64,000 bases of DNA from Bacteroidota bacterium (GTDB taxonomy: Bacteria > Bacteroidota > Ignavibacteria > UBA10030 > UBA6906). Below, one piece after another: positions 7,073 to 40,531 of this stretch. The position numbers were made by a program, and so were the translations under genes. How positions within the stretch are numbered: position 1 is the first letter of the stretch; every line of letters begins with the position of its first letter. Below the pieces are notes generated by a model that searched no databases, had not been told where the DNA came from, and saw only the letters and a list, made by a program, of their open reading frames with translations. The stretch spans positions 16,567-80,566 of the forward strand of contig JBAVEL010000186.1 of NCBI GenBank assembly GCA_049587715.1. Direction: 5' to 3'.

Positions 7073-9877
7073 ATGAACGAACCACGCCGTCATGCCGTCC
7101 TCCTCGGATTGCTGTTGTGCCTGGGAGGAGTCGCCGTTGCCGGAACCACGGGGAAGATCACCGGGACGGTCCGAGACGCCCAGACGGGCGAGCCGATCGT
7201 GGGGGCCAGCATCGTCATCGAGGGAACCCGGACCGGGGCCGCCACGGATGTCGATGGGTACTATGTCATCCTGAACGTTCCGCCCGGCCGCCATACCCTG
7301 GCGGGTTCGGCGGTGGGCTACACCCGCAAGACCATGAGGGACGTGTCCGTTTCGGTGGATCTCACAACGCGGGCGGACTTCTCCCTCTCGCAGGAGGCGG
7401 TGCAGGCGGAGGAGATCGTGGTGACGGCGGAGCGCCGGGTCATCAAGAAGGACCTCACCTCCTCGGAGTCGAGGGTGACGGCCCAGCAAATCGAGAGCCT
7501 CCCCGTCTCGGAAGTGGCGGAGGTGCTGTCGCTCCAGGCCGGGATTACGACGGACAAGGGGGGCGGGATCCACATCCGGGGGGGGCGTACCAGCGAGGTG
7601 GCATACTGGGTGGACGGGGTGTCGGTCTCCGACGTATATGACGGCACGCAGGCCGTGCAGGTGGACAACAACTCCGTGCAGGAGCTGCAGGTCATCAGCG
7701 GCACCTTCAACGCCGAGTACGGCCAGGCCATGTCGGGCATCGTCAACATCGTGACGAAGGACGGGGACCAGGAGTTCCGGGGGAGTCTCTCCTCCTATGC
7801 GGGGGACTATCTCACCGCCGATGACGGCATCTTCTTCAACAGCGACGACATCCGTCCCTTCGCCAGCCGGAACGTGGAAGGGAGCATCAGCGGTCCGGTG
7901 CCGGGGATCCAGGGCCTGACATTCTACGTTTCGGGCCGCTATTTCGAGACCGACGGCTGGCTGTACGGCAACAGGGTGTACAACGCCGACGGCACGCTCG
8001 CATCGGCGGCGGATACAAACCGCGACGATTCCGGGAATCAGCTCTCCCTGGTTCCGGGATCGCATCCCGTCCCCATGAACAACCGCACCCGCCTGTCCGG
8101 GCAGGCCAAGCTGACCTACCAGTTCTCGGGGGACATGAAGCTCGCCCTGAGCGGGCTTGCGAGCGATGTGGAGTTCCGGGACTACAATCACGACTACAAG
8201 TACATGCCGGATGCGGATGTGCGGAAGTTCGACCGGGGATACAGCGTGTCGGCCCTCTGGACACATTCCCTTTCCCCCACATCGCTCTACACCGTCAACA
8301 CGTCCTACTTCATGAAGCAGTTTGACGAGTATCTGTACGAGAACCCCCTGGACCCCCGGTACATTGTCACTCCCGACCCGGTCCTCCGGCAGAGGAACCT
8401 GAGGGAATTCCTGAAGTTCGGGACGAACAACCACCAGTTCGTCCGGCGGACGGAGTCGCGCGTCGCCAAGCTGGACTATACCGACCAGGTCAGCCGGCTG
8501 CACCAGATCAAGGCGGGGGTGGAGGGGAAGCTGCACCGGCTGTATCTGGAGGATTACAACGTCCGCAACGCCCCCAACACCACGACCGTCGTGGTGATTC
8601 CGGAGTGGTACGGCCCCCAATACCAGGAGTACACGGAGCGGCCGGTTGAGTTCTCGGCGTACCTCCAGGACAAGCTGGAGTACGAGAGCATGATCGTGAA
8701 TGTGGGGCTCCGGTTCGACTACTTTGACTCGCGCGGGAGGGTCCCCCTGGATCCCCAGGATCCCAACGCCTTCAATCCCGCCAAGGACGAGAACCGTGTG
8801 GATCTGAACGGGGACGGCATCAAGTCGGATCTGGAGCAGGTGGAACCCGGAGTGCTCTCGGCCCGGCTGGCACGGTGGTACCGCAGCGCCACGGCCAAGT
8901 ACAGTGTGAGCCCCCGCCTCGGCATCTCCTACCCCATTACCGACAGGGGGGTCCTGCACTTTTCCTACGGGCACTTCCTGCAGATTCCCTCTTTCATACA
9001 CCTCTACCAGAACCCCGGCTTCAAGGTGCAGCCCACGCTGGCAGGCGTGCAGGGGGTCTACGGGAACGCCGACCTGGAAGCGCAGAAGACGGTCCAGTAT
9101 GAGCTGGGACTCCAGCAGCAGCTGACCGAGGACTTGAGCTTCGACCTGACCGGGTTCTACCGCGACACGCGGGAGTGGGTGACCACCAGCACCGCCATCC
9201 CCGTCCGGGACCCGGCCACGGCCATCTCCAGCTACACGACCTACGAAAACAAGGACTACGCCAACGCCCGGGGCATCACGCTCTCGTTGAACAAACGTCC
9301 CAGCAATCTCTGGTCCCTCTCCCTCTCGTATACATACCAGACCGCCGAGGGCATCAACTCCAATCCGGACGACGCCCAGGCGGCCCTGGTGAACAACTCA
9401 CAGCCGGCGCAGCAGCTCATCCCCCTGGACTGGGACCAGACACACACCGCCAACCTGACCGTGGGAGTGGGGGAACAGGACTGGGGGGTCTTCCTGCTTG
9501 CCCGTTACGGCTCGGGTCTTCCCTATTCCCCCGTGCTGAACCAGGCGGAGGGAAGTGGCCAGGATGCGAACCGCGCCGCCCTGCGGAACAGCCGCAGACG
9601 GCCCCCCTCCTACACTGTGGACATGCGTCTGTTCAAGAACTTCAGGGTGGAACCCCTGGATGTGAGCGTCTTCCTGAAGGTCTTCAACCTCTTTGACCGC
9701 AGGAACGAGAACGACATCTACGGCGAGACCGGACGGGCCACCGCCACGCCCGCCGCCCTGGGACTCCCCGCTTCGCCCGGCACCGACAGGGTGAACACGG
9801 TGGTGGAGTTCCTGAACCAGCCGCAGTTCTATTCCGAGCCGCGGGAAGTGCAGATCGGACTGGAAATCAACTTCTGA
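7073..9877 (+). CDS. TonB-dependent receptor (carboxypeptidase-regulatory-like domain + plug + beta-barrel)
   Basis: Start MNEPRRHAVLLGLLLCLGGVAVAG (signal peptide). CarboxypepD_reg-like GKITGTVRDAQTGEPIVGASIV..DVDGYYV. Plug motifs IVVTAERR, ESLPVSEVAEVLSLQAGI. Ends in an aromatic residue (..LEINF) typical of OM barrels. Track TTG start at 7031 trimmed. Confidence 0.8.
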   Translation: MNEPRRHAVLLGLLLCLGGVAVAGTTGKITGTVRDAQTGEPIVGASIVIEGTRTGAATDVDGYYVILNVPPGRHTLAGSAVGYTRKTMRDVSVSVDLTTRADFSLSQEAVQAEEIVVTAERRVIKKDLTSSESRVTAQQIESLPVSEVAEVLSLQAGITTDKGGGIHIRGGRTSEVAYWVDGVSVSDVYDGTQAVQVDNNSVQELQVISGTFNAEYGQAMSGIVNIVTKDGDQEFRGSLSSYAGDYLTADDGIFFNSDDIRPFASRNVEGSISGPVPGIQGLTFYVSGRYFETDGWLYGNRVYNADGTLASAADTNRDDSGNQLSLVPGSHPVPMNNRTRLSGQAKLTYQFSGDMKLALSGLASDVEFRDYNHDYKYMPDADVRKFDRGYSVSALWTHSLSPTSLYTVNTSYFMKQFDEYLYENPLDPRYIVTPDPVLRQRNLREFLKFGTNNHQFVRRTESRVAKLDYTDQVSRLHQIKAGVEGKLHRLYLEDYNVRNAPNTTTVVVIPEWYGPQYQEYTERPVEFSAYLQDKLEYESMIVNVGLRFDYFDSRGRVPLDPQDPNAFNPAKDENRVDLNGDGIKSDLEQVEPGVLSARLARWYRSATAKYSVSPRLGISYPITDRGVLHFSYGHFLQIPSFIHLYQNPGFKVQPTLAGVQGVYGNADLEAQKTVQYELGLQQQLTEDLSFDLTGFYRDTREWVTTSTAIPVRDPATAISSYTTYENKDYANARGITLSLNKRPSNLWSLSLSYTYQTAEGINSNPDDAQAALVNNSQPAQQLIPLDWDQTHTANLTVGVGEQDWGVFLLARYGSGLPYSPVLNQAEGSGQDANRAALRNSRRRPPSYTVDMRLFKNFRVEPLDVSVFLKVFNLFDRRNENDIYGETGRATATPAALGLPASPGTDRVNTVVEFLNQPQFYSEPREVQIGLEINF

Positions 9878-14762: not shown

Positions 14763-16664
14763 ATGAGACACCGTTGGCTCATGCATGCCGTAGCCCTGGG
14801 CGTGCTCGTCTGTCTGGCCGCGGGCCTGTCGGTCGCCCAGAACGACGCAACGTTCCAGGTCAACATGAAGATCAAGATGAAGGAGGGAACCTTCCTGCCC
14901 GGGAGCGGGGATATTGTCCGCGTCGCGGGAGGATTCAACAACTGGGGGAGCTCCACCGACACCCTGCGGGATGGGGATGGAGACAGCATCTACACCAAGA
15001 CCATCTCCCTTGCCACCGGGGCCATCCTCTACAAGTTCCTCAAGACCCCGCGGGGAGGCCTCGACTGGGAGGCGGACCCGAACCGGGAATACACGGTGGT
15101 GGCGGGATCCCAGACGATTCCCGTCGTCTATTTCGACCGCGACTCCATCTACAACCCCCCCACGGCGGACGTTCCGGTGACCTTCGGGGTGGACATGGGA
15201 GTGCTCATGTGCGAGGGGTTGTTCCTTCCGGGAAGCGGGGACATCGTGCGCGTGGCGGGGGGGTTCAACAACTGGGGTGGATCCACGGACACCCTCAAGG
15301 ATGCGGACAATGACAGCATCTACACCAAGACGATCACCCTGATGGAGAGCCAGGCCATCCGGTACAAGTTCCTGAAGACCCCCCGGGGGGGGATTGACTG
15401 GGAGGGGAACGTGAATCCCTCCGATCCCGACGGAAACCGCACCTACACCGTTCCCACCGGCGGAGGTCCCATTCCGGTCGCCTACTTCAACAACGATTCG
15501 GTCTGCAGCATCGTGGTGACCGCCAACGTCCTCTGGCAGGCGGAGATGACCCCGTACCAGCAGCTGGGGTGGTTCAACCCCGTCATCGATTCCCTACAGG
15601 TGCGGGGAGGGTTCAACTCATGGGGCGGGTCCCTCATGGACTTCGACCCGCTCACCACGGGGACCTACTTTGTGACCGTGCCCGTGACGGGCTCCGTCGG
15701 AGAGCCGGTGTTCCACAAGTACTTCATCGACCTGGACGAGGCCACGGCCGAGACCCGCTTCCCCGGATACTCGGGGGATGCGGACGGAGTCCGCTATGAG
15801 CATCCATACACCCGGGGAGACGGGAACCGGGGCTTTGCCATTCCCGGCGGCGGCAACCAGGCCACGGAGCTCTTCTGGTTCAGCGACATTCATCCGGGGG
15901 GCCTCCTGAAGAACCTCACGGACACCGTGTCGGTCACGATGCGGGTGGACATGGGGCCGGCCACGCGGGACGCCATCGCCTTCGACCCGGCGGCGGACAG
16001 CGTGCGGATCATCTTCTTCGACCGGATGTGGGTGGGGGCGCAGGCGGCCCGGCAGGGCGGGACGTCGTCGTCGTTCCCCAATATCGATCTCCTCCCCACG
16101 CCCGATCCGGCCGACACGATCTACCAGGGGACCTTCAAGGTCGTGGGGAAGGCCCACTACGGCATCCTGTACGGGTATGAGTTCCGCCAGCCCGGCGGGG
16201 CCACCTCCAGCGAGGGTGCGGGACTCGGCGCCCAGGGAGGGCGGAGGGTCCGTTTCATCCAGCCCCTGGCTCCCAACTCGTTCCCCCGGTTCTATACCGC
16301 TCCGCTGGACAGCTGGAAGAAGAACGCGCCGCTGTTCGGGGAGACTCCTCCCTACAACCCTTCAGCGGGTGTGATCGAAGATCCCACGCCGGGGGTGCCC
16401 GAGGGCTTCACCCTGGGGCAGAACTACCCCAACCCCTTCAACCCGAGCACGAAGTTCCGGTACAGCGTGCCCGAGAAGGCGCGGGTGATGCTCCGGGTGT
16501 ATGATATCCTCGGGCGTGAAGTGGCTACCCTGGTGAATCAGGAGCAGGCGGCGGGAAGCTACATTGCTCTGTTCGAGTCCAACAACCTGCCCACGGGCGT
16601 CTACTTCTACCGCCTGGAGGCGGGCAGGTTCAGCGAGACCCGGAAGATGGTGCTGCTGAGGTAG
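14763..16664 (+). CDS. Secreted protein with three tandem starch/glycogen-binding CBM-like domains (VAGGFNNWG motif) and a T9SS C-terminal sorting domain
   Basis: AGGAGGA RBS. Signal peptide MRHRWLMHAVALGVLVCLAAGLSVAQ. Repeats GDIVRVAGGFNNWG(S/G)STDTL..YKFLKTPRGG(L/I)DWE. C-terminal tail QNYPNPFNPSTKFRYSVPEKARVMLRVYDILGREVATLV..GVYFYRLEAGRFSETRKMVLLR. Confidence 0.8.
   Translation: MRHRWLMHAVALGVLVCLAAGLSVAQNDATFQVNMKIKMKEGTFLPGSGDIVRVAGGFNNWGSSTDTLRDGDGDSIYTKTISLATGAILYKFLKTPRGGLDWEADPNREYTVVAGSQTIPVVYFDRDSIYNPPTADVPVTFGVDMGVLMCEGLFLPGSGDIVRVAGGFNNWGGSTDTLKDADNDSIYTKTITLMESQAIRYKFLKTPRGGIDWEGNVNPSDPDGNRTYTVPTGGGPIPVAYFNNDSVCSIVVTANVLWQAEMTPYQQLGWFNPVIDSLQVRGGFNSWGGSLMDFDPLTTGTYFVTVPVTGSVGEPVFHKYFIDLDEATAETRFPGYSGDADGVRYEHPYTRGDGNRGFAIPGGGNQATELFWFSDIHPGGLLKNLTDTVSVTMRVDMGPATRDAIAFDPAADSVRIIFFDRMWVGAQAARQGGTSSSFPNIDLLPTPDPADTIYQGTFKVVGKAHYGILYGYEFRQPGGATSSEGAGLGAQGGRRVRFIQPLAPNSFPRFYTAPLDSWKKNAPLFGETPPYNPSAGVIEDPTPGVPEGFTLGQNYPNPFNPSTKFRYSVPEKARVMLRVYDILGREVATLVNQEQAAGSYIALFESNNLPTGVYFYRLEAGRFSETRKMVLLR
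14844..15590 (+). repeat. Intragenic tandem duplication of a CBM-like domain (two ~370-nt units with high nucleotide identity)
   Basis: Unit 1 ...ttcctgcccgggagcggggatattgtccgcgtcgcgggaggattcaacaactggggg... and unit 2 ...ttccttccgggaagcggggacatcgtgcgcgtggcgggggggttcaacaactggggt... A third more diverged unit follows. Confidence 0.6.
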
Positions 16665-35747: not shown

Positions 35748-36983
35748 TCAGGGTCTCCAGCCGAAAAACCGGCGGAGGATGTCAGGGAGTTCGTTCCGCC
35801 ACCTCCCCCAGCTGTGCCCGTCGGGGAATTCCCTGTAGGCGAGGGGGTATCCCCGCTCTTCGAGCACCTGCCGCAGACGGCGATTCCCGGCGATGAAATC
35901 GCCCTCGCGGGCCCGTGCCGCTCCTCCCACGGAGGTCTCGTACGTACCGCAGTCGAGATAGAGCGAAACATCCGGCCGGGGGAGACGTGCCGCCAGGGAG
36001 GCCAGCGTGTCGGACCGGAACGAGACGTACCCCGACTGGCTTGCCGCATTGGCGAACACATCCGGCCGGGAAAGTGCAAGCCCCAGGGATATGAGCCCGC
36101 CGTACGACGCTCCCATCGCCAGGCGGGCGGAAGGGCGTGGGATGGTGCGGAAGAGGCTGTCCACAAGCGGAACCAGCTCGTCGGCGACGAAGGAGATGTA
36201 GCTGCCGTTCAGCCCGTATTCCGTGGTGCGGTCGGTCCCGGGACCGGGAGGGGGGACGATGAAGACGGCTGCAAGCGGCGGGACCGCTTCCGCCCCATGC
36301 ATGGCGTCGAGCACGAGGACCGCCTGCGCAAACCTCAGGTAGTCCCCTCCGTCCTGGAAGTAGGCCACCCCACAGCGGAAGGAGGCCCCGGCGTATCCCG
36401 GCGGCGTGTACACGTGCACCTCGTGGGCATAGCCGAGATGGGCGCTCTTTACTCTGAGCGTGGAGAGACTCCCCCCGGGCGCCTCCGGGGCCGCGTCCGG
36501 CTCCGGAGCCCTGCGGAAGCCCGGCATGGCAAGCTCCGAGTTGGGCCCGTATCCTCCCGGCGCCGTGCGGGGGTTCTCGGGATCAAGAATGAAGGAGCCG
36601 TTCCCCAGAAGGAGCTTGTAATCCAGCCGCGCCTCGCACGGGAAGCCCATGCGGAGATGGAAGAGGTCGGTCCCCGGAAGCCGCCGGAAGGGGATCCGGG
36701 AACTCCACCCGGTCATGTCTCCCGTCAGAAAGACGCTGTCGGTGCTTCCACGGTAGAGGAAGGTCGCCGTGTCTCCCGCCGCATCCACGAGGGGAAGGCG
36801 TCCCCTGGCACTCCGGCTCCAGAGCCCCTCGACCAGACGCTCCCGTTCCTCCCCGGGGGGCGCCGCCTCGGCGCCCGCCAGCAGCGCGGGGAACCCGGGT
36901 TCAACGCCCTGCGGTCGTGTGGCGGCGCATCCGGCCGCACTCAGGAGGGCGGGGATCAGGAGGAGGAAGACGGTGGACTTCAC
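35748..36983 (-). CDS. Esterase-family alpha/beta hydrolase lipoprotein with N-terminal CBM48/Ig-like domain (paralog 2)
   Basis: GTG start. Lipobox LLSAAGC. GDMTGWSS module. Nucleophile elbow MGASYGG. Same architecture as the adjacent paralog. Confidence 0.75.
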   Translation of the reverse strand: MKSTVFLLLIPALLSAAGCAATRPQGVEPGFPALLAGAEAAPPGEERERLVEGLWSRSARGRLPLVDAAGDTATFLYRGSTDSVFLTGDMTGWSSRIPFRRLPGTDLFHLRMGFPCEARLDYKLLLGNGSFILDPENPRTAPGGYGPNSELAMPGFRRAPEPDAAPEAPGGSLSTLRVKSAHLGYAHEVHVYTPPGYAGASFRCGVAYFQDGGDYLRFAQAVLVLDAMHGAEAVPPLAAVFIVPPPGPGTDRTTEYGLNGSYISFVADELVPLVDSLFRTIPRPSARLAMGASYGGLISLGLALSRPDVFANAASQSGYVSFRSDTLASLAARLPRPDVSLYLDCGTYETSVGGAARAREGDFIAGNRRLRQVLEERGYPLAYREFPDGHSWGRWRNELPDILRRFFGWRP

Positions 36984-37036: not shown

Positions 37037-37044
37037 CAATCGGC
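37037..37044. repeat. Target-site duplication copy 1 (CAATCGGC)
   Basis: 8-bp direct repeat abutting IRL. The identical 8-mer abuts IRR at 40053-40060. Confidence 0.65.
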
Positions 37045-37079
37045 GGTACTGTCCTAATTAGGGGGAGGTTGTCCTAAAT
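37045..37079. repeat. Left terminal inverted repeat (IRL, 35 bp; contains two tgtcctaa sub-repeats)
   Basis: See the mobile_element entry. Confidence 0.75.
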
Positions 37080-37185
37080 CGGTGGGAGTTCCACGATCCT
37101 CGCGCCATACATGAAACGCGAGTTTAGAATCCAACCAGCTTGGAAGGCTGGTTTTCTTCATGACCGCTTCACTCCCACCGATTCA

Positions 37186-38025
37186 TTATGCGGCCGCCCT
37201 CTGTGTTGCCCAACCCGACAAACCCGTCCATGTCCAAATGTGCTTTGTTAGACCCGCCTCCATCGCGGGGGTAACGCGTAGCGTCTCGTGGACCCTGGCG
37301 AAGTTGTAATGCCAGAAGTACAGCGCCAGAGCCGCTTTTAGGTTCTCCCATTTCTTGCTGTAGGCGTTGGTGAGACGCGCAAACCGCTTCATCCCTATCC
37401 TCATGCTGAGATTCTGCCTCTCAATGTGGGAGGTTGAAATGTGCTTCCGCTTAGGCTTGCCGAAGACGGGTATTATTTCCACCCGGACAATGCCTGCCGG
37501 ACTGTACCGCCTTTCAGGGCTTCTATCCACCTGGGCGTAACTCTTCGCAACCTGCCCGTAGTCAATATCTGCCCCCCAAATCCTATCCACAACATCGCGG
37601 TAGGGCGAGAAGGCATCGGTTGAAAGTTGGAATCGTGTCTTGACGCGGGCGGCCACATCCCGCATGAATACCTCTGCGGTCTGGACGGTCCGCTTCCCAA
37701 GTCTGAAAGACGGGATGAGCTTGGAGTCGCTGTCCATAGCCACAAAGCAATACTGATCGCCCGTAAACTCGTCTTGGTTTTCGGGGCGAATGAAACGCTG
37801 GTGCTTCCCTACATAGGTCCAGATTTCATCAACTTGGAGTCTCTTCACGCTCAGGTCCCGCATTTCAGAGTCCATGAACGCCTCACACGCTTCCCCGGCT
37901 GATACGAGAAGCCGCATGATCGTGTCCCGGTGAATCCCGGATAGGCGTTCGGTGGATCGGATTGAGTTCCCTTCGGCCAAGAGGGAAAGGGCAAGGGCCT
38001 TCTTTTCAGCAGACAGTACGTTCAT
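37186..38025 (-). CDS. IS1-family-like transposase (single ORF: N-terminal HTH + DDE catalytic domain)
   Basis: N-terminal HTH MNVLSAEKKALALSLLAEGNSIRSTERLSGIHRDTIMRLL. Catalytic region KRLQVDEIWTYVGKH...CFVAMDSDSKL...ISTSHIERQNLSMRIGMKRFARLTNAYSKKWENLKAALALYFWHYNF. Its spacing parallels E. coli IS1 InsB (MDEQWGYVG...[25 protein letters not shown]). GGAG RBS. An IS1595-like assignment is not excluded. Confidence 0.75.
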   Translation of the reverse strand: MNVLSAEKKALALSLLAEGNSIRSTERLSGIHRDTIMRLLVSAGEACEAFMDSEMRDLSVKRLQVDEIWTYVGKHQRFIRPENQDEFTGDQYCFVAMDSDSKLIPSFRLGKRTVQTAEVFMRDVAARVKTRFQLSTDAFSPYRDVVDRIWGADIDYGQVAKSYAQVDRSPERRYSPAGIVRVEIIPVFGKPKRKHISTSHIERQNLSMRIGMKRFARLTNAYSKKWENLKAALALYFWHYNFARVHETLRVTPAMEAGLTKHIWTWTGLSGWATQRAAA

Positions 38026-38048
38026 CGCGAGTCTCCGTCAGATTCCGA

Positions 38049-38077
38049 TTTGACTTTCCCCCGCGATGAACGTATAT
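38049..38077 (+). promoter_or_regulatory. Sigma70-like promoter TTGACT-N17-TATATT facing away from the transposase start
   Basis: ttgactttcccccgcgatgaacgtatatt lies immediately upstream (on the plus strand) of a structured ~190-nt region ending in an intrinsic terminator. Confidence 0.5.
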
Positions 38078-38084
38078 TAGGTCA

Positions 38085-38275
38085 GGGTCTATGTCCGTTC
38101 ACGCGGGCATGGATTTCAGGGCTTCGAAGGTGGTCACACACCTGAGAAGCCCGCTTGTAAGCGGGCCTACTGTGGTATTTTGAGCTGCTTACTCATACAC
38201 CCATCCTTTCCCGAAGCGTTGCAGCGCTTCGATTGAGGTTTGACAGAGGCGCTCTTAGTGAGCGCCTTTTTATTT
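38085..38275 (+). ncRNA. Candidate small RNA (~190 nt) inside the mobile element, between the transposase 5-prime end and the 128-aa gene 3-prime end
   Basis: Bounded by the TTGACT-N17-TATATT promoter and an intrinsic terminator (aggcgctc ttagt gagcgcct + ttttattt). Two further hairpins lie inside (gcccgcttgtaagcgggc, cgaagcgttgcagcgcttcg). The only ORF is 30 codons without a convincing RBS. Confidence 0.3.
38247..38275 (+). terminator. Intrinsic terminator (8-bp GC stem + TTTTATTT) for the candidate sRNA
   Basis: AGGCGCTCttagtGAGCGCCTttttattt. Oriented for plus-strand transcription. Overlaps the stop codon of the convergent 128-aa gene. Confidence 0.5.
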
Positions 38276-38656
38276 GAGGTCATAGACCCCTCGGGCCGCC
38301 CGCTTAAGTCTTGCACTCTTCTTATCACATTCCTGGGACAGAATAGCACCAAGAGCCCTCGCCTTGTCCTTGTTATCGCCCAGACTGATCCCCTTTTCCT
38401 CCACCGCGAACTTCAAGACCTCTTCATTCGTCACATGTCTCCCCATCCTATGAATCAGCTCGATAGTCGCATCTACAACACGGCCTCGGATCGTGTTCGA
38501 GCCTGGGCGTGGCGGAGAGACTGAGACGGCCAACGCTCCTGTCTCGCCCCCAGACTCGCCCTTGCGTATCGCGATCAGTTGAAGAAGAAGCTCCCTTTCC
38601 CTTTCAATCTCTGTAAGTCGGGCCTCCAGGACTTCGGTCGAAAGTGTGGCACACAT
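38270..38656 (-). CDS. Hypothetical 128-aa protein (N-terminal coiled coil, possible C-terminal DNA-binding fold), cargo of the mobile element
   Basis: ATG at 38656 with AGGAG RBS. Its own TTGACA-N17-TATACT promoter lies upstream. Sequence is MCATLSTEVLEARLTEIERERELLLQLIAIRKG...TIRGRVVDATIELIHRMGRHVTNEEVLKFAVEEKGISLG... No family recognised. Confidence 0.6.
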   Translation of the reverse strand: MCATLSTEVLEARLTEIERERELLLQLIAIRKGESGGETGALAVSVSPPRPGSNTIRGRVVDATIELIHRMGRHVTNEEVLKFAVEEKGISLGDNKDKARALGAILSQECDKKSARLKRAARGVYDLK

Positions 38657-38683
38657 GTTTAGGTTCTCCTATTAGCCGGGTAT

Positions 38684-38712
38684 AGTATACAAAAAAACCC
38701 TTTACTTGTCAA
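38684..38712 (-). promoter_or_regulatory. Sigma70-like promoter TTGACA-N17-TATACT for the 128-aa gene (minus strand)
   Basis: Reverse complement reads cTTGACAagtaaagggtttttttgTATACTataccc, about 28 nt upstream of the ATG. Confidence 0.6.
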
Positions 38713-38748
38713 GCCCACCACGGTCCGCATTTTAGGCTTCCTATGGAC

Positions 38749-38776
38749 GCCGCAATGCATTATGCCGCAATCAATT
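38749..38776. promoter_or_regulatory. Two direct 13-mer repeats GCCGCAATnnATT between divergent promoters (candidate operator)
   Basis: acGCCGCAATgcATTatGCCGCAATcaATTgtgg lies between the 128-aa gene promoter and the panA-like promoter. Confidence 0.35.
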
Positions 38777-38784
38777 GTGGTTGC

Positions 38785-38813
38785 TTGCTTTTTGTGTTTC
38801 GCTGTTGTATATT
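38785..38813 (+). promoter_or_regulatory. Promoter TTGCTT-N17-TATATT for the Panacea-domain operon
   Basis: ttgcttgctttttgtgtttcgctgttgtatatt. The transcript would start ~25 nt before the strong AGGAGG RBS of the 38844 gene. Confidence 0.45.
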
Positions 38814-38843
38814 GGGTTGTAGAACATACCAGGAGGTCACAAC

Positions 38844-39314
38844 ATGTATCCCATGAAGGCCATCGCCAACTTCTTCATTGATAGGGCGATGAAGGAGGGG
38901 GCCGAAATGAGCCCTATGAAGATCCAAAAGCTGTTATATTTCGCTTACGGGATATACCACGTCAAAACGGGGGAACCTTTGTTTAGCGATAGGTTCGAAG
39001 TATGGAAATACGGTCCCGTTATCTCTGAGCTTTACCATTTGCTCAAGGGATACGGAAGCGATCAGATCGACAGGCTTTTGCCGGATTTTGACATGGCAAC
39101 TATGAGAGTTGTCACGCCGACGATCCCGAGGGAAGAAAAGGAATTACTCGTCTTTCTAACTGAGTTTTGGGAGGTCTACAGGGGGTATTCGCCTATTCGG
39201 CTCTCAAATGCAACCCATCTTCCTGGAACACCGTGGGATGAGGCGAATCGAGCAGGCGAGAAGGTCATCAGCGATCAACGCATGGATGCCTACTTCAGCG
39301 GCTTGGTGCAATGA
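38844..39314 (+). CDS. Panacea-domain (DUF4065) protein, PanA-like putative antitoxin
   Basis: AGGAGG RBS 7 nt upstream. MSPMKIQKLLYFAYGIYHVKTGEPLFSDRFEVWKYGPVISELYHLLKGYG matches the conserved Panacea core (SocA/PanA antitoxins). Stop overlaps the next start (ATGA). Confidence 0.8.
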   Translation: MYPMKAIANFFIDRAMKEGAEMSPMKIQKLLYFAYGIYHVKTGEPLFSDRFEVWKYGPVISELYHLLKGYGSDQIDRLLPDFDMATMRVVTPTIPREEKELLVFLTEFWEVYRGYSPIRLSNATHLPGTPWDEANRAGEKVISDQRMDAYFSGLVQ

Positions 39315-39661
39315 AACTCATGGGAGTCCCGAAGTTACCCCCAGGTCCAGAAGCGCCCACGCTCCAAACACAGCAGGAAATGGAGCTTTACCATTGTAAG
39401 GAGTCGGACCTTAGACTAAGGGGGATAGCACAGGACATTGAGGAAAGAAAGACCTACGCTCGAAAAACCTTCAGATTAGCAGGCTGGTGGCTCTTTGGGG
39501 TGTTTGTCTTGCTTATCCTGGGTGGGCTCAAAATGGAGCCTCTCATGTTCCAATTGCCCGAGAGCGTATTGTTGGCTGTGATCGGGGGAACAACTCTAAA
39601 CATACTGGGGGTCTTTGTGTTCGTAATGAAGTACCTCTTCGATGTGAAGAGGGAGGTATAG
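39311..39661 (+). CDS. Small (116 aa) protein with a soluble N-terminal region and two C-terminal TM helices; candidate cognate toxin of the Panacea antitoxin
   Basis: Translationally coupled to the Panacea gene. TM1 FRLAGWWLFGVFVLLILGGL, TM2 SVLLAVIGGTTLNILGVFVFVM. No family recognised. Confidence 0.55.
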   Translation: MKLMGVPKLPPGPEAPTLQTQQEMELYHCKESDLRLRGIAQDIEERKTYARKTFRLAGWWLFGVFVLLILGGLKMEPLMFQLPESVLLAVIGGTTLNILGVFVFVMKYLFDVKREV

Positions 39662-39696
39662 AAAAAACCCCGAAGCTGTTTGCAGCAACTTCGGGG
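39662..39696 (-). terminator. Perfect 8-bp GC hairpin (CCCCGAAG/CTTCGGGG) with the T-run on the minus strand, immediately after the 116-aa gene stop
   Basis: Plus strand aaaaaaCCCCGAAGctgtttgcagcaaCTTCGGGGtcgg. The U-tract exists only for minus-strand transcription. It may also serve as a 3-prime stabiliser of the plus-strand operon. Confidence 0.45.
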
Positions 39697-39766
39697 TCGG
39701 AAACCGTTCCGCCCGGCTAACTGATGGGGCAAGCTTCGAGGCGGAGGGCTCAAGGTATTGCTCTCC

Positions 39767-39795
39767 AATATACAAAACTCTGAGCCCGAAAGCAA
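39767..39795 (-). promoter_or_regulatory. Possible convergent promoter TTGCTT-N17-TATATT (minus strand), same architecture as the panA-like promoter
   Basis: Reverse complement reads gcTTGCTTtcgggctcagagttttgTATATTgg. It shares ttgtatattgg with the 38785-38813 promoter. It would drive a short transcript ending at the 39662-39696 terminator. Confidence 0.3.
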
Positions 39796-39984
39796 GCCCC
39801 CGCCACTCATCGAAAGGGCCTCTTCTATGGCCATTTCAGGGTCTCGGCAGGGCTATAGGCTCATTTTCGTTGCCTATATCACGCTGAGAAATAGGAAGCG
39901 GATCTACGCAAGAGATTATGGCTTGCGGGCGTTCGCGATTTGGGTGAGGGACGATTAGTCTCTGACCCATCTGAGGCAAAACAC

Positions 39985-40021
39985 GGGACCCCGCATTGCT
40001 GTTCGGGGTCCCGTTCTATTT
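39985..40021. terminator. Bidirectional hairpin terminator (GGGACCCCG/CGGGGTCCC) just inside IRR
   Basis: 9-bp perfect stem. gttctattt follows on the plus strand and gtgttttg follows on the minus strand. Confidence 0.45.
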
Positions 40022-40052
40022 AGGACAAAACCCCTCTAATTAGGACAGCACC
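40018..40052. repeat. Right terminal inverted repeat (IRR, 35 bp)
   Basis: atttaggacaaaacccctctaattaggacagcacc is the inverse complement of IRL at 30/35 positions. Confidence 0.75.
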
Positions 40053-40060
40053 CAATCGGC
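40053..40060. repeat. Target-site duplication copy 2 (CAATCGGC)
   Basis: 8-bp direct repeat abutting IRR. Confidence 0.65.
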
Positions 40061-40150: not shown

Positions 40151-40531
40151 ATGGAGCAGGAACACAGGCCGGGAGTTCTCCTCTGCGAGGACCAGGAGCA
40201 GATCCTGGAGCTGATGGTCCTTGTCTTCGAGATGGAGGGCTTCGAAGTCCACCGGGCCAGGGACGGCGAGGAGGGTCTGGCTGTCCTGGGAGCGGCAATG
40301 GAACGGATTGACGCCCTGGTGACGGACCTGGGCCTTCCCCGCCTGGAGGGGCTGGAGTTGATCGCCCGGGCCCGCGCGATCAAGCCCTCCCTCAAGATCA
40401 TAGGATCCAGCGGCTACGGACGGGCGAACGTGCGGGAGGAGGTCCTGGCGGCGGGAGCAGACGATTTCATGGGGAAGCCGATTGCAGCGAAGGATCTCGT
40501 GGACAGGGTGAAGGGACTCCTGGGGCTGTGA
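40151..40531 (+). CDS. Single-domain response regulator (CheY-like receiver)
   Basis: REC-domain features: phospho-acceptor region [11 protein letters not shown] and lysine in FMGKP. Confidence 0.8.

Follow-up and report, generated by a model that had tools for sequence, protein, structure and literature searches.

A predicted PanA-PanT toxin-antitoxin pair with a membrane toxin in an IS1-like insertion sequence of a Bacteroidota contig

The PanA-PanT gene pair and the element that carries it

The 64-kb stretch of DNA analyzed here, referred to as the window, covers positions 16,567 to 80,566 of contig JBAVEL010000186.1, which is annotated by NCBI as a Bacteroidota metagenome-assembled genome (MAG). 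Two overlapping genes on the plus strand of this window are the subject of the analysis. The upstream gene encodes a Panacea-domain protein of 156 amino acids (aa), here called PanA, and the downstream gene encodes a 116-aa protein with two predicted transmembrane (TM) helices, here called PanT. Both genes lie within a 3,008-bp IS1-like element (37045-40052). The original prediction, which was made from the DNA letters without database searches, had described them as a candidate novel type II toxin-antitoxin (TA) pair carried on a mobile insertion sequence (IS). The features of the element are listed in Table 1.

Table 1. Features of the IS1-like element and its cargo (coordinates are those of the window)
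Feature	Coordinates	Strand	Basis or remark
Target-site duplication CAATCGGC, 8 bp, left copy	37037..37044		Directly outside IR-L
Left terminal inverted repeat, IR-L	37045..37079	+	35 nt, 86% complementary to 40018-40052; two TGTCCTAAWT units 20 nt apart
IS1-family-like DDE transposase, 279 aa, N-terminal helix-turn-helix (HTH)	37186..38025	-	NCBIfam, Pfam, relative L057
38-aa open reading frame or leader region between the 128-aa gene and the transposase gene	38170..38283	-	Coding status uncertain; 72% aa identity in L057-L059
128-aa gene, divergent from PanA; candidate regulator	38270..38656	-	N-terminal coiled-coil helix, disordered linker, C-terminal HTH/winged-helix-like domain
Near-consensus sigma-70 promoter of the 128-aa gene, TTGACA-17-TATACT	38684..38712	-	11/12 matches
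Conserved promoter-like blocks GCTTGCTTTTTG and TTGTATATTG, then AGGAGG, upstream of PanA	38783..38836	+	Intergenic alignment
PanA, single-domain Panacea antitoxin, 156 aa	38844..39314	+	PF13274, PHROG 1281; without DNA-binding N-terminal domain
PanT, 116-aa two-TM membrane protein, predicted toxin	39311..39661	+	ATGA overlap, hydropathy, AlphaFold2, homology to a T3 member
Hairpin directly after the PanT stop	39667..39697		dG -18.2 kcal/mol, z -3.3; T-run on minus-strand side
43-aa basic protein gene (MAISGSRQGYRLIFVAYITLRNRKRIYARDYGLRAFAIWVRDD), fourth cassette gene	39827..39958	+	tblastn conservation, codon substitutions
Strong hairpin followed by UUCUAUU, just inside IR-R	39983..40014	+	dG -23.7 kcal/mol, z -4.1
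Right terminal inverted repeat, IR-R	40018..40052	-	35 nt, two TGTCCTAAWT units
Target-site duplication CAATCGGC, 8 bp, right copy	40053..40060		Identical octamer directly outside IR-R

Both predicted open reading frames (ORFs) were present with the sequences and positions claimed for them. As read from the sequence, the stop codon of PanA and the start codon of the 116-aa gene share the letters ATGA, a 4-nt overlap. The strong AGGAGG ribosome-binding site that had been described was seen at 38831-38836 on the plus strand, 7 nt upstream of the PanA ATG. The assignment of the first protein to the Panacea domain was confirmed by Pfam PF13274 (SocA_Panacea), which PanA matched at 67 bits against a cut-off of 25.7 (E 3.5e-18). 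The match spanned residues 27-131 of PanA, corresponding to profile positions 1-112 of 113. PanA also matched PHROG 1281 (E 5e-40) and NCBIfam SocA_antitoxin, the latter at 100.9 bits, which is under the equivalog cut-off of 190.

The hydropathy profile of PanT contained two hydrophobic segments, with centers near residues 62-73 and 93-98, and its N-terminal 51 residues were hydrophilic, with 8 K/R and 8 D/E. The AlphaFold2 model, built with 63 relatives as input (predicted local distance difference test, pLDDT, 89.9), consisted of a continuous helix at residues 18-72, a loop and a second helix at residues 84-110. The first helix runs from the cytosolic part into TM1, and the second is TM2. 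The two analyses agreed on the two C-terminal TM helices of the prediction; the soluble N-terminus, given there as about 65 aa, was about 50 aa by hydropathy and by the helix bounds of the model. The juxtamembrane residues are basic (ERKTYARKTFR), the loop is short and acidic, and the C-terminus is again basic. This charge pattern suggests that the C-terminal helical hairpin of PanT has an N-in/C-in topology.

No curated family of Pfam, NCBIfam or PADLOC was matched above threshold by PanT. The best Pfam match was PF20712 (CyanoTRADDas_TM) at 16.2 bits, below the gathering threshold of 24.3. This family was matched weakly in five of the nine close relatives of PanT, with a best E of 8e-4 and all scores below threshold. 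PHROG 26171 was matched by PanT at E 1e-6. A tblastn search with PanT gave no match among 50,697 phage records and nothing usable among 72,556 plasmid records, and PADLOC matched neither PanA nor PanT, save for a chance-level DarG hit. Foldseek comparison of the structure models of PanT and of the 128-aa protein with the PDB gave non-significant matches only, and sequence-profile searches of the PDB with all three protein families gave no match.

The element stands out from its surroundings by its base composition, with 47-55% G+C from about 37050 to 40050 and 65-70% on both sides. The unit TGTCCTAAWT was found four times in the 64-kb window, all at the two element ends, against 0.02 expected. 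With its terminal inverted repeats and short target duplication, the element has the ends of an IS1-family member, and the empty site expected without it would read GGGAAGCAATCGGCCCTCTGTT. The terminal repeats and the 8-bp duplication indicate that the whole 3-kb unit was transposed as one piece. The claim that the pair is carried on a mobile IS was thus upheld by the 35-nt inverted repeats and the flanking direct repeat. An alternative layout, in which a 1.1-kb IS mobilized its flank via a distal solo repeat, was rejected; the internal copy of the repeat is absent, and the layout of L057, one of the related loci (numbered with the prefix L), is identical.

Elements of the IS1 family have a single DDE transposase with an N-terminal HTH and terminal inverted repeats starting GGTnCTG. 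Their target duplications are typically 8-9 bp, and in ISfinder usage a transporter IS is one with passenger genes between its repeats. The transposase of the window scored 62.9 bits with NCBIfam transpos_IS1 (cut-off 100) and 23 bits with Pfam DDE_Tnp_IS1 (cut-off 24.1). The L057 transposase (278 aa), which is 63% identical to the window copy, passed the Pfam IS1 model at 36.2 bits, and the L114 transposase passed it at 33.2 bits. An Rfam scan of the element gave a chance-level match only. The IS lies between an esterase-like gene (35748-36983, minus strand) and a response-regulator receiver gene (40151-40531, plus strand), and neither of these genes of the high-GC host appears to be disrupted by it.

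The PanT family and its relation to published PanAT systems

A word-indexed search found nine close relatives of PanT. Wherever enough DNA was present, a 156- or 157-aa Panacea gene was located directly upstream of the relative and overlapped it. In an exhaustive profile search, the number of cluster representatives was 3,189 with E<=1e-3 as the limit and 1,410 with E<=1e-10; their lengths were about 100-190 aa throughout, and most of them came from soil and peat metagenomes. A locus scan of one genome per species, with the alignment of the nine PanT sequences as the query, returned 44 loci, which were distributed over Acidobacteriota, Bacteroidota, Alphaproteobacteria, Gemmatimonadota, Planctomycetota, Dehalococcoidia, Latescibacterota, Treponema and others.

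At 42 of these 44 loci, the upstream ORF on the same strand was homologous to the window PanA, and all 42 matched PF13274. Relative to the maximal ORF of the two-TM gene, the end of the upstream PanA ranged from 163 nt ahead of it to 128 nt within it. The original prediction had proposed a coupled pair with the antitoxin first and a survey of the neighborhoods of 116-aa homologs; in this survey the homologs were recurrently next to Panacea genes, and the antitoxin-first arrangement was conserved. Chance pairing is excluded, as the pair recurs in dozens of independent genomes. Two members of the family, L038 and L041, are orphan or decayed copies; at L041 the upstream gene has the opposite orientation.

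Two motifs form the conserved core of the PanT family, QDIEERKxYA...W...G (TM1) and LSDxVLLAxIGGTTxNVLGIFxxVxxYLF (TM2). Among the 42 PanA partners, H125 and W131 were invariant and W54, G57, P58 and V59 nearly invariant, and the conserved core motifs (WxYGPV, H125 and PW) are retained in the window PanA. No second Pfam domain was matched by any of these 42 PanAs, only PF13274. A DNA-binding domain of the HTH, ribbon-helix-helix or AbrB type, as carried by the antitoxin of classical autoregulated type II TA systems, was thus not found in PanA. The PanT family is an almost obligate partner of PanA and is still without a curated model.

The PanAT systems were defined by Kurata et al. 2022 (PNAS, PMC8832971), and many of their PanTs are small proteins with TM helices. 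Three of these, Escherichia coli T3, Bartonella T12 and Helicobacter T4, were found by experiment to stop all macromolecular synthesis and depolarize the membrane, and those of E. coli and Bartonella additionally permeabilize it (PMC8832971). The E. coli T3 PanT acts on the inner membrane and is neutralized by its PanA; the validated pair from E. coli STEC O31 consists of PanT WP_000019185.1 (cluster T3) and PanA WP_000287252.1 (PMC8832971). Some predicted PanTs were non-toxic or were not neutralized in the assays (LabReport column, Fig. S4 legend), and accessory third genes were recorded in some PanAT loci (PMC8832971).

The window PanT could be connected to this classification through locus L052, which is Dyadobacter koreensis DSM 19938. 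By exact look-up, its PanA is WP_090337573.1, and Dataset S1 pairs this protein with the toxin WP_090337575.1, listed as cluster T3, order A|T, gap 25 nt (PMC8832971). At L052, an ATG exactly 25 nt past the PanA stop opens a two-TM ORF. The window PanT matched this locus by BLASTP at E 6e-11 and about 33% identity, and alignment of the window PanT subgroup (A1) with the Dyadobacter-anchored subgroup (A6) by hhalign gave a probability of 99.85% (E 8e-31, 81 columns). Homology to PanT cluster T3 was found in this way via the D. koreensis member, and the hydropathy, charge and AlphaFold2 model of PanT fit the published description of T3/T12 (PMC8832971).

These results indicate that the partner is not an unrecognized toxin type, because it is homologous to a T3 member and T3 holds the validated E. 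coli toxin; the original prediction had found no family for it, and this point had to be given up. The novelty of the pair as a whole did not stand either, since pairs of PanA and a small toxin with C-terminal TM helices behind a charged N-terminus had already been published as a class (PMC8832971). The T3-like toxin family, with more than 3,000 representatives from at least eight phyla, exceeds by far, in both size and spread, what the RefSeq-based survey suggested.

The interface of a related pair, PanT(T12/D11):PanA of Bartonella choladocola (B. apis), was described by Ernits et al. 2023 (PMC10440598) on the basis of a model and mutagenesis. In that pair, the Panacea core directly contacts the N-terminal region of the membrane toxin and the helix preceding its TM segment, and Panacea was argued to be a sensor rather than a transcriptional regulator (PMC10440598).

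Accessory genes, control region and related elements

Two further genes, which the original prediction had missed, accompany the pair in its close relatives. The 128-aa protein was better conserved than the TA genes; it was present in all close cassette relatives at 65-74% identity, compared with 40-63% for PanT. In its structure model (pLDDT 77), a disordered linker joins a long N-terminal helix to a C-terminal domain of three helices, for which a resemblance to HARE-HTH or winged-helix regulators is tentative, and neither PADLOC nor NCBIfam gave a match. Because the PanAs of this family are without a DNA-binding domain, the 128-aa protein, predicted to be HTH-like, is the best candidate for the operon regulator and the most likely transcriptional regulator to act on the shared 187-bp control region. 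The 128-aa family was also found in two other settings: in the P0187 context, where PanA is absent and an IS1-like transposase lies downstream, and at L060/L061, where it is divergent from a pair of genes for an Xre-HTH protein and an HExxH ImmA/IrrE-like protein. As the family occurs beyond PanA loci, it may be tied to mobile elements more broadly.

The 43-aa ORF lies 165 nt past the PanT stop. By tblastn it was found at the same position in every cassette-bearing locus (67-86% aa identity), whereas no distant PanA-PanT locus contained it. Over 37 codons, 15-24 carried synonymous substitutions only and 4-10 carried amino-acid-changing ones. This concentration of substitutions at the third codon position indicates that the ORF is a real gene under purifying selection. 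It was overlooked by the gene callers in most relatives. The family search with the 43-aa protein gave no match, and a weak homolog was found in Microcystis phage MACPNOA1 (ARB07020.1). The 38-aa ORF, which overlaps the 3' end of the 128-aa gene, was conserved only in the transposase-bearing relatives L057-L059 and may serve the transposase gene as a leader or in its regulation.

One criterion for PanAT systems is a conserved neighborhood implying an operon of no more than three genes (Kurata 2022, PMC8832971). The distant relatives of the window pair keep the PanA-PanT core only, whereas the close subclade keeps four genes.

The control region between the two divergent genes was aligned for the window, L001 and L009. 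The TTGACA block of the promoter of the 128-aa gene was invariant in these three diverged loci, and on the plus strand GCTTGCTTTTTG (38783-38794) and TTGTATATTG (38805-38814) were conserved in the same three. No sigma-70 consensus promoter was scored on the plus strand upstream of PanA. A Bacteroidota -33/-7 promoter was considered at this position and rejected, as the spacing from TTTG to TAtaTTGG (13 nt) is too short, and for this reason the blocks are described as conserved promoter-like blocks only. Of the dedicated promoter that had been proposed for the pair, the two blocks conserved in three diverged loci therefore remain, but without a scored sigma-70 consensus. Between its two promoters, the divergent control region contains a tandem 15-nt direct repeat (GCCGCAATGCATTAT / GCCGCAATCAATTGT, 38749-38778). 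This repeat is possibly an operator, but L001 and L009 show no clear conservation of it.

The hairpin that had been noted downstream of the pair is real, but it is not a canonical terminator for the plus-strand operon, because its T-run is on the minus-strand side. An A-run on the plus strand precedes this hairpin (39666-39698), which scores as an intrinsic terminator for minus-strand transcription only. It may block antisense read-through into the toxin gene. The stronger hairpin just inside IR-R is, from its sequence, the likely terminator of the plus-strand operon. Since the first hairpin is wrong-sided and the stronger one lies past the 43-aa gene, the plus-strand transcript probably includes the 43-aa gene.

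The same cassette was found in a peat metagenome (L057/L058) beside a transposase that is 63% identical to that of the window. At these loci the transposase, which has an end of the same kind beside it, is followed by the 38-aa ORF, the 125-aa gene, PanA, a PanT-family toxin of 139 aa and the 43-aa ORF. L001, L009 and L063 contained the four-gene cassette without a transposase. The end motif of the element, GGTRCTGTCCTARTT-N10-TGTCCTAAWT, was detected on at least 120 soil and peat metagenome contigs (L068-L187). The interiors of these contigs had no sequence in common, and a related transposase was located within 4.5 kb of the motif on only six of them. The contigs without a transposase may hold solo ends, derivatives resembling miniature inverted-repeat transposable elements, or other elements that use the same ends. 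On L107, two copies of the motif (9756-9833) stand back to back, outward-facing and 8 bp apart, and this arrangement would look like an IS circle or tandem-dimer junction or like two abutting elements.

On the six transposase-bearing contigs, different cargo occupies the 1.6-1.8 kb from the end to the transposase. One type of cargo comprises a DUF3467 protein (28 bits), a 226-aa protein with a weak HTH_3 match and a 127-aa protein with a weak Gp49-like match; this cargo possibly includes another TA pair. The other type is an uncharacterized 245- to 301-aa protein. These alternative cargos were seen in L072, L079 and L134 (interior 100-1900 from the repeat), L114 and L186. The evidence is thin, and it suggests that the element family has a cargo slot with exchangeable content.

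Assessment of the toxin-antitoxin reading and comparison with known systems

Taken together, the two genes are best read as a cognate PanA-PanT type II TA pair of the membrane-toxin class, carried as cargo of a 3,008-bp IS1-family transporter IS. The probability of this reading is estimated at about 0.7. The PanA and PanT genes would be co-transcribed and translationally coupled. PanT would insert its C-terminal helical hairpin into the membrane with N-in/C-in orientation, oligomerize via the small/polar face of TM2 (IGGTTxN) together with W60 and G63 of TM1, and dissipate the membrane potential. By analogy with B. choladocola (PMC10440598), PanA is expected to sequester the cytosolic helix and juxtamembrane segment (QDIEERKxYA) of PanT and so keep the toxin harmless. 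If PanA were lost, inactivated or triggered, PanT would be freed, and the freed toxin could cause post-loss killing, which stabilizes the element, and/or abortive infection.

Several points weigh against this reading. Toxicity of the 116-aa protein and its neutralization by PanA are predictions from homology and architecture. The tie of the window PanT to the validated E. coli toxin is indirect, running through the D. koreensis T3 member and the clustering of Kurata, and the window PanT may belong to a sister cluster rather than to T3 proper. Two of the 44 family members, in a Prevotella MAG (L038) and an Acidiferrales MAG (L041), are without an upstream PanA. In the close subclade, the unit consists of four genes, namely, the divergent 128-aa gene, PanA, PanT and the 43-aa ORF. 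The two-gene pair of the original prediction thus holds as a cognate core, but it may not be the complete module in this subclade, where two more conserved genes accompany it.

The last point raises the question whether the functional unit is the four-gene cassette, with the 128-aa and 43-aa proteins as obligatory components (a regulator plus a second antitoxin, chaperone or trigger adaptor). All loci of the close cassette retain the four genes in the same order, identity is higher for the 128-aa protein (65-74%) than for PanT (40-63%), purifying selection acts on the 43-aa ORF, and some PanAT loci have accessory third genes (PMC8832971). At the distant loci, however, the PanA-PanT core occurs without either extra gene, and hidden Markov model and tblastn matches to the extras are confined to the close subclade. 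The absence of the extras from the distant loci indicates that the core is self-sufficient elsewhere. As the 128-aa family is also found without PanA, an obligatory four-gene unit is regarded as rather unlikely. A similar, rather low likelihood is given to the module being primarily an abortive-infection or anti-phage system, in which PanA senses a phage cue and then releases or activates the membrane effector, and which the IS would carry for its benefit to the host. This possibility is compatible with a TA pair and concerns its role. It would account for the matches of PanA and PanT to phage families (PHROG 1281, E 5e-40, and PHROG 26171, E 1e-6) and for the phage homolog of the 43-aa gene. 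Two-TM effectors are common in defense systems, and PanT has a weak likeness to PF20712, a TM module of conflict systems. However, PADLOC found nothing beyond the chance-level DarG hit for either protein, PanT had zero tblastn matches in the 50,697 phage records, and the neighbors of the cassette in the window are a transposase and host genes, with defense genes absent from the flanks.

That the 116-aa protein is a harmless membrane partner, serving as an anchor or target of PanA, and that the pair is not a TA system, is considered very improbable. The predicted PanTs that were non-toxic or unneutralized in the assays of Kurata (PMC8832971) could be cited for it. Against it stand the homology of the 116-aa protein to a cluster with a validated membrane toxin, its strict and frequently overlapping linkage to PanA at 42 of the 44 loci, and the mobile, patchy distribution that is typical of TA modules.

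A more far-reaching proposal, which we regard as speculative and improbable, is that the IS1-like family with doubled TGTCCTAAWT ends has a dedicated slot for interchangeable conflict cassettes, with the 128-aa and 43-aa proteins as obligatory couplers of toxin release to transposition or phage attack. If true, a TA or defense module would be integral to the life cycle of an insertion sequence, as proposed for Tn3, in a minimal IS.

For the predicted TA pair, the novelty is modest. Judged by homology, it belongs to the known PanAT class with membrane toxins and is not a new system, and for the TA field it adds little beyond another PanA-membrane-toxin pair. What is new is the large uncurated toxin family dedicated to PanA, its carriage in a compact IS1-like element and the two conserved accessory genes. 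As a compact IS with clean ends and with relatives that carry the same or other cargo, the element is a manageable model in which to ask whether insertion sequences persist better with TA modules, and the 128-aa and 43-aa proteins are candidates to supply the regulation that PanAs without a DNA-binding domain are missing.

In comparison with the PanAT membrane toxins of cluster T3, the window pair has the same stand-alone PanA in first position and the same tight spacing or overlap. Its second protein is likewise small, charged in the N-terminal region and equipped with TM helices at the C-terminal end. The pair differs from them by the two extra conserved genes, by its location inside an IS and by its host, a high-GC Bacteroidota MAG. 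With the B. choladocola PanT:PanA pair it shares a stand-alone Panacea protein in which the WxYGPV, H125 and PW core is retained, and the interface proposed for the window pair is drawn by analogy only. PanT resembles PF20712 (CyanoTRADDas_TM), a two-TM module associated with TRADD-N in cyanobacteria, in its two-TM hairpin and similar length, but the scores are sub-threshold and the TRADD-N association is absent at the window locus.

The element itself resembles the IS1 family and its transporter ISs in transposase layout, GGTnCTG repeats, 8-bp duplication and passenger genes. At 3 kb it is unusually long, its repeats hold a doubled 10-nt unit, and its transposase scores at or below the cut-offs. 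A precedent for transposon-borne TA modules is provided by the Tn3-family transposons (Lima-Mendez et al. 2020, mBio, PMC7157771). The window element differs from these in its IS1-like DDE transposase, its length of 3 kb and its lack of a resolvase, and PanAT is absent from the TA families reported for them (PMC7157771). Its cargo sits between the transposase and the distal inverted repeat. In both cases, a type II TA module is located inside a transposable element beside the transposition genes, and related elements carry different TA-like cargo at the same position. The TA modules of the Tn3 family were proposed to stabilize the element (PMC7157771), and the window cassette is likened to them in this respect.

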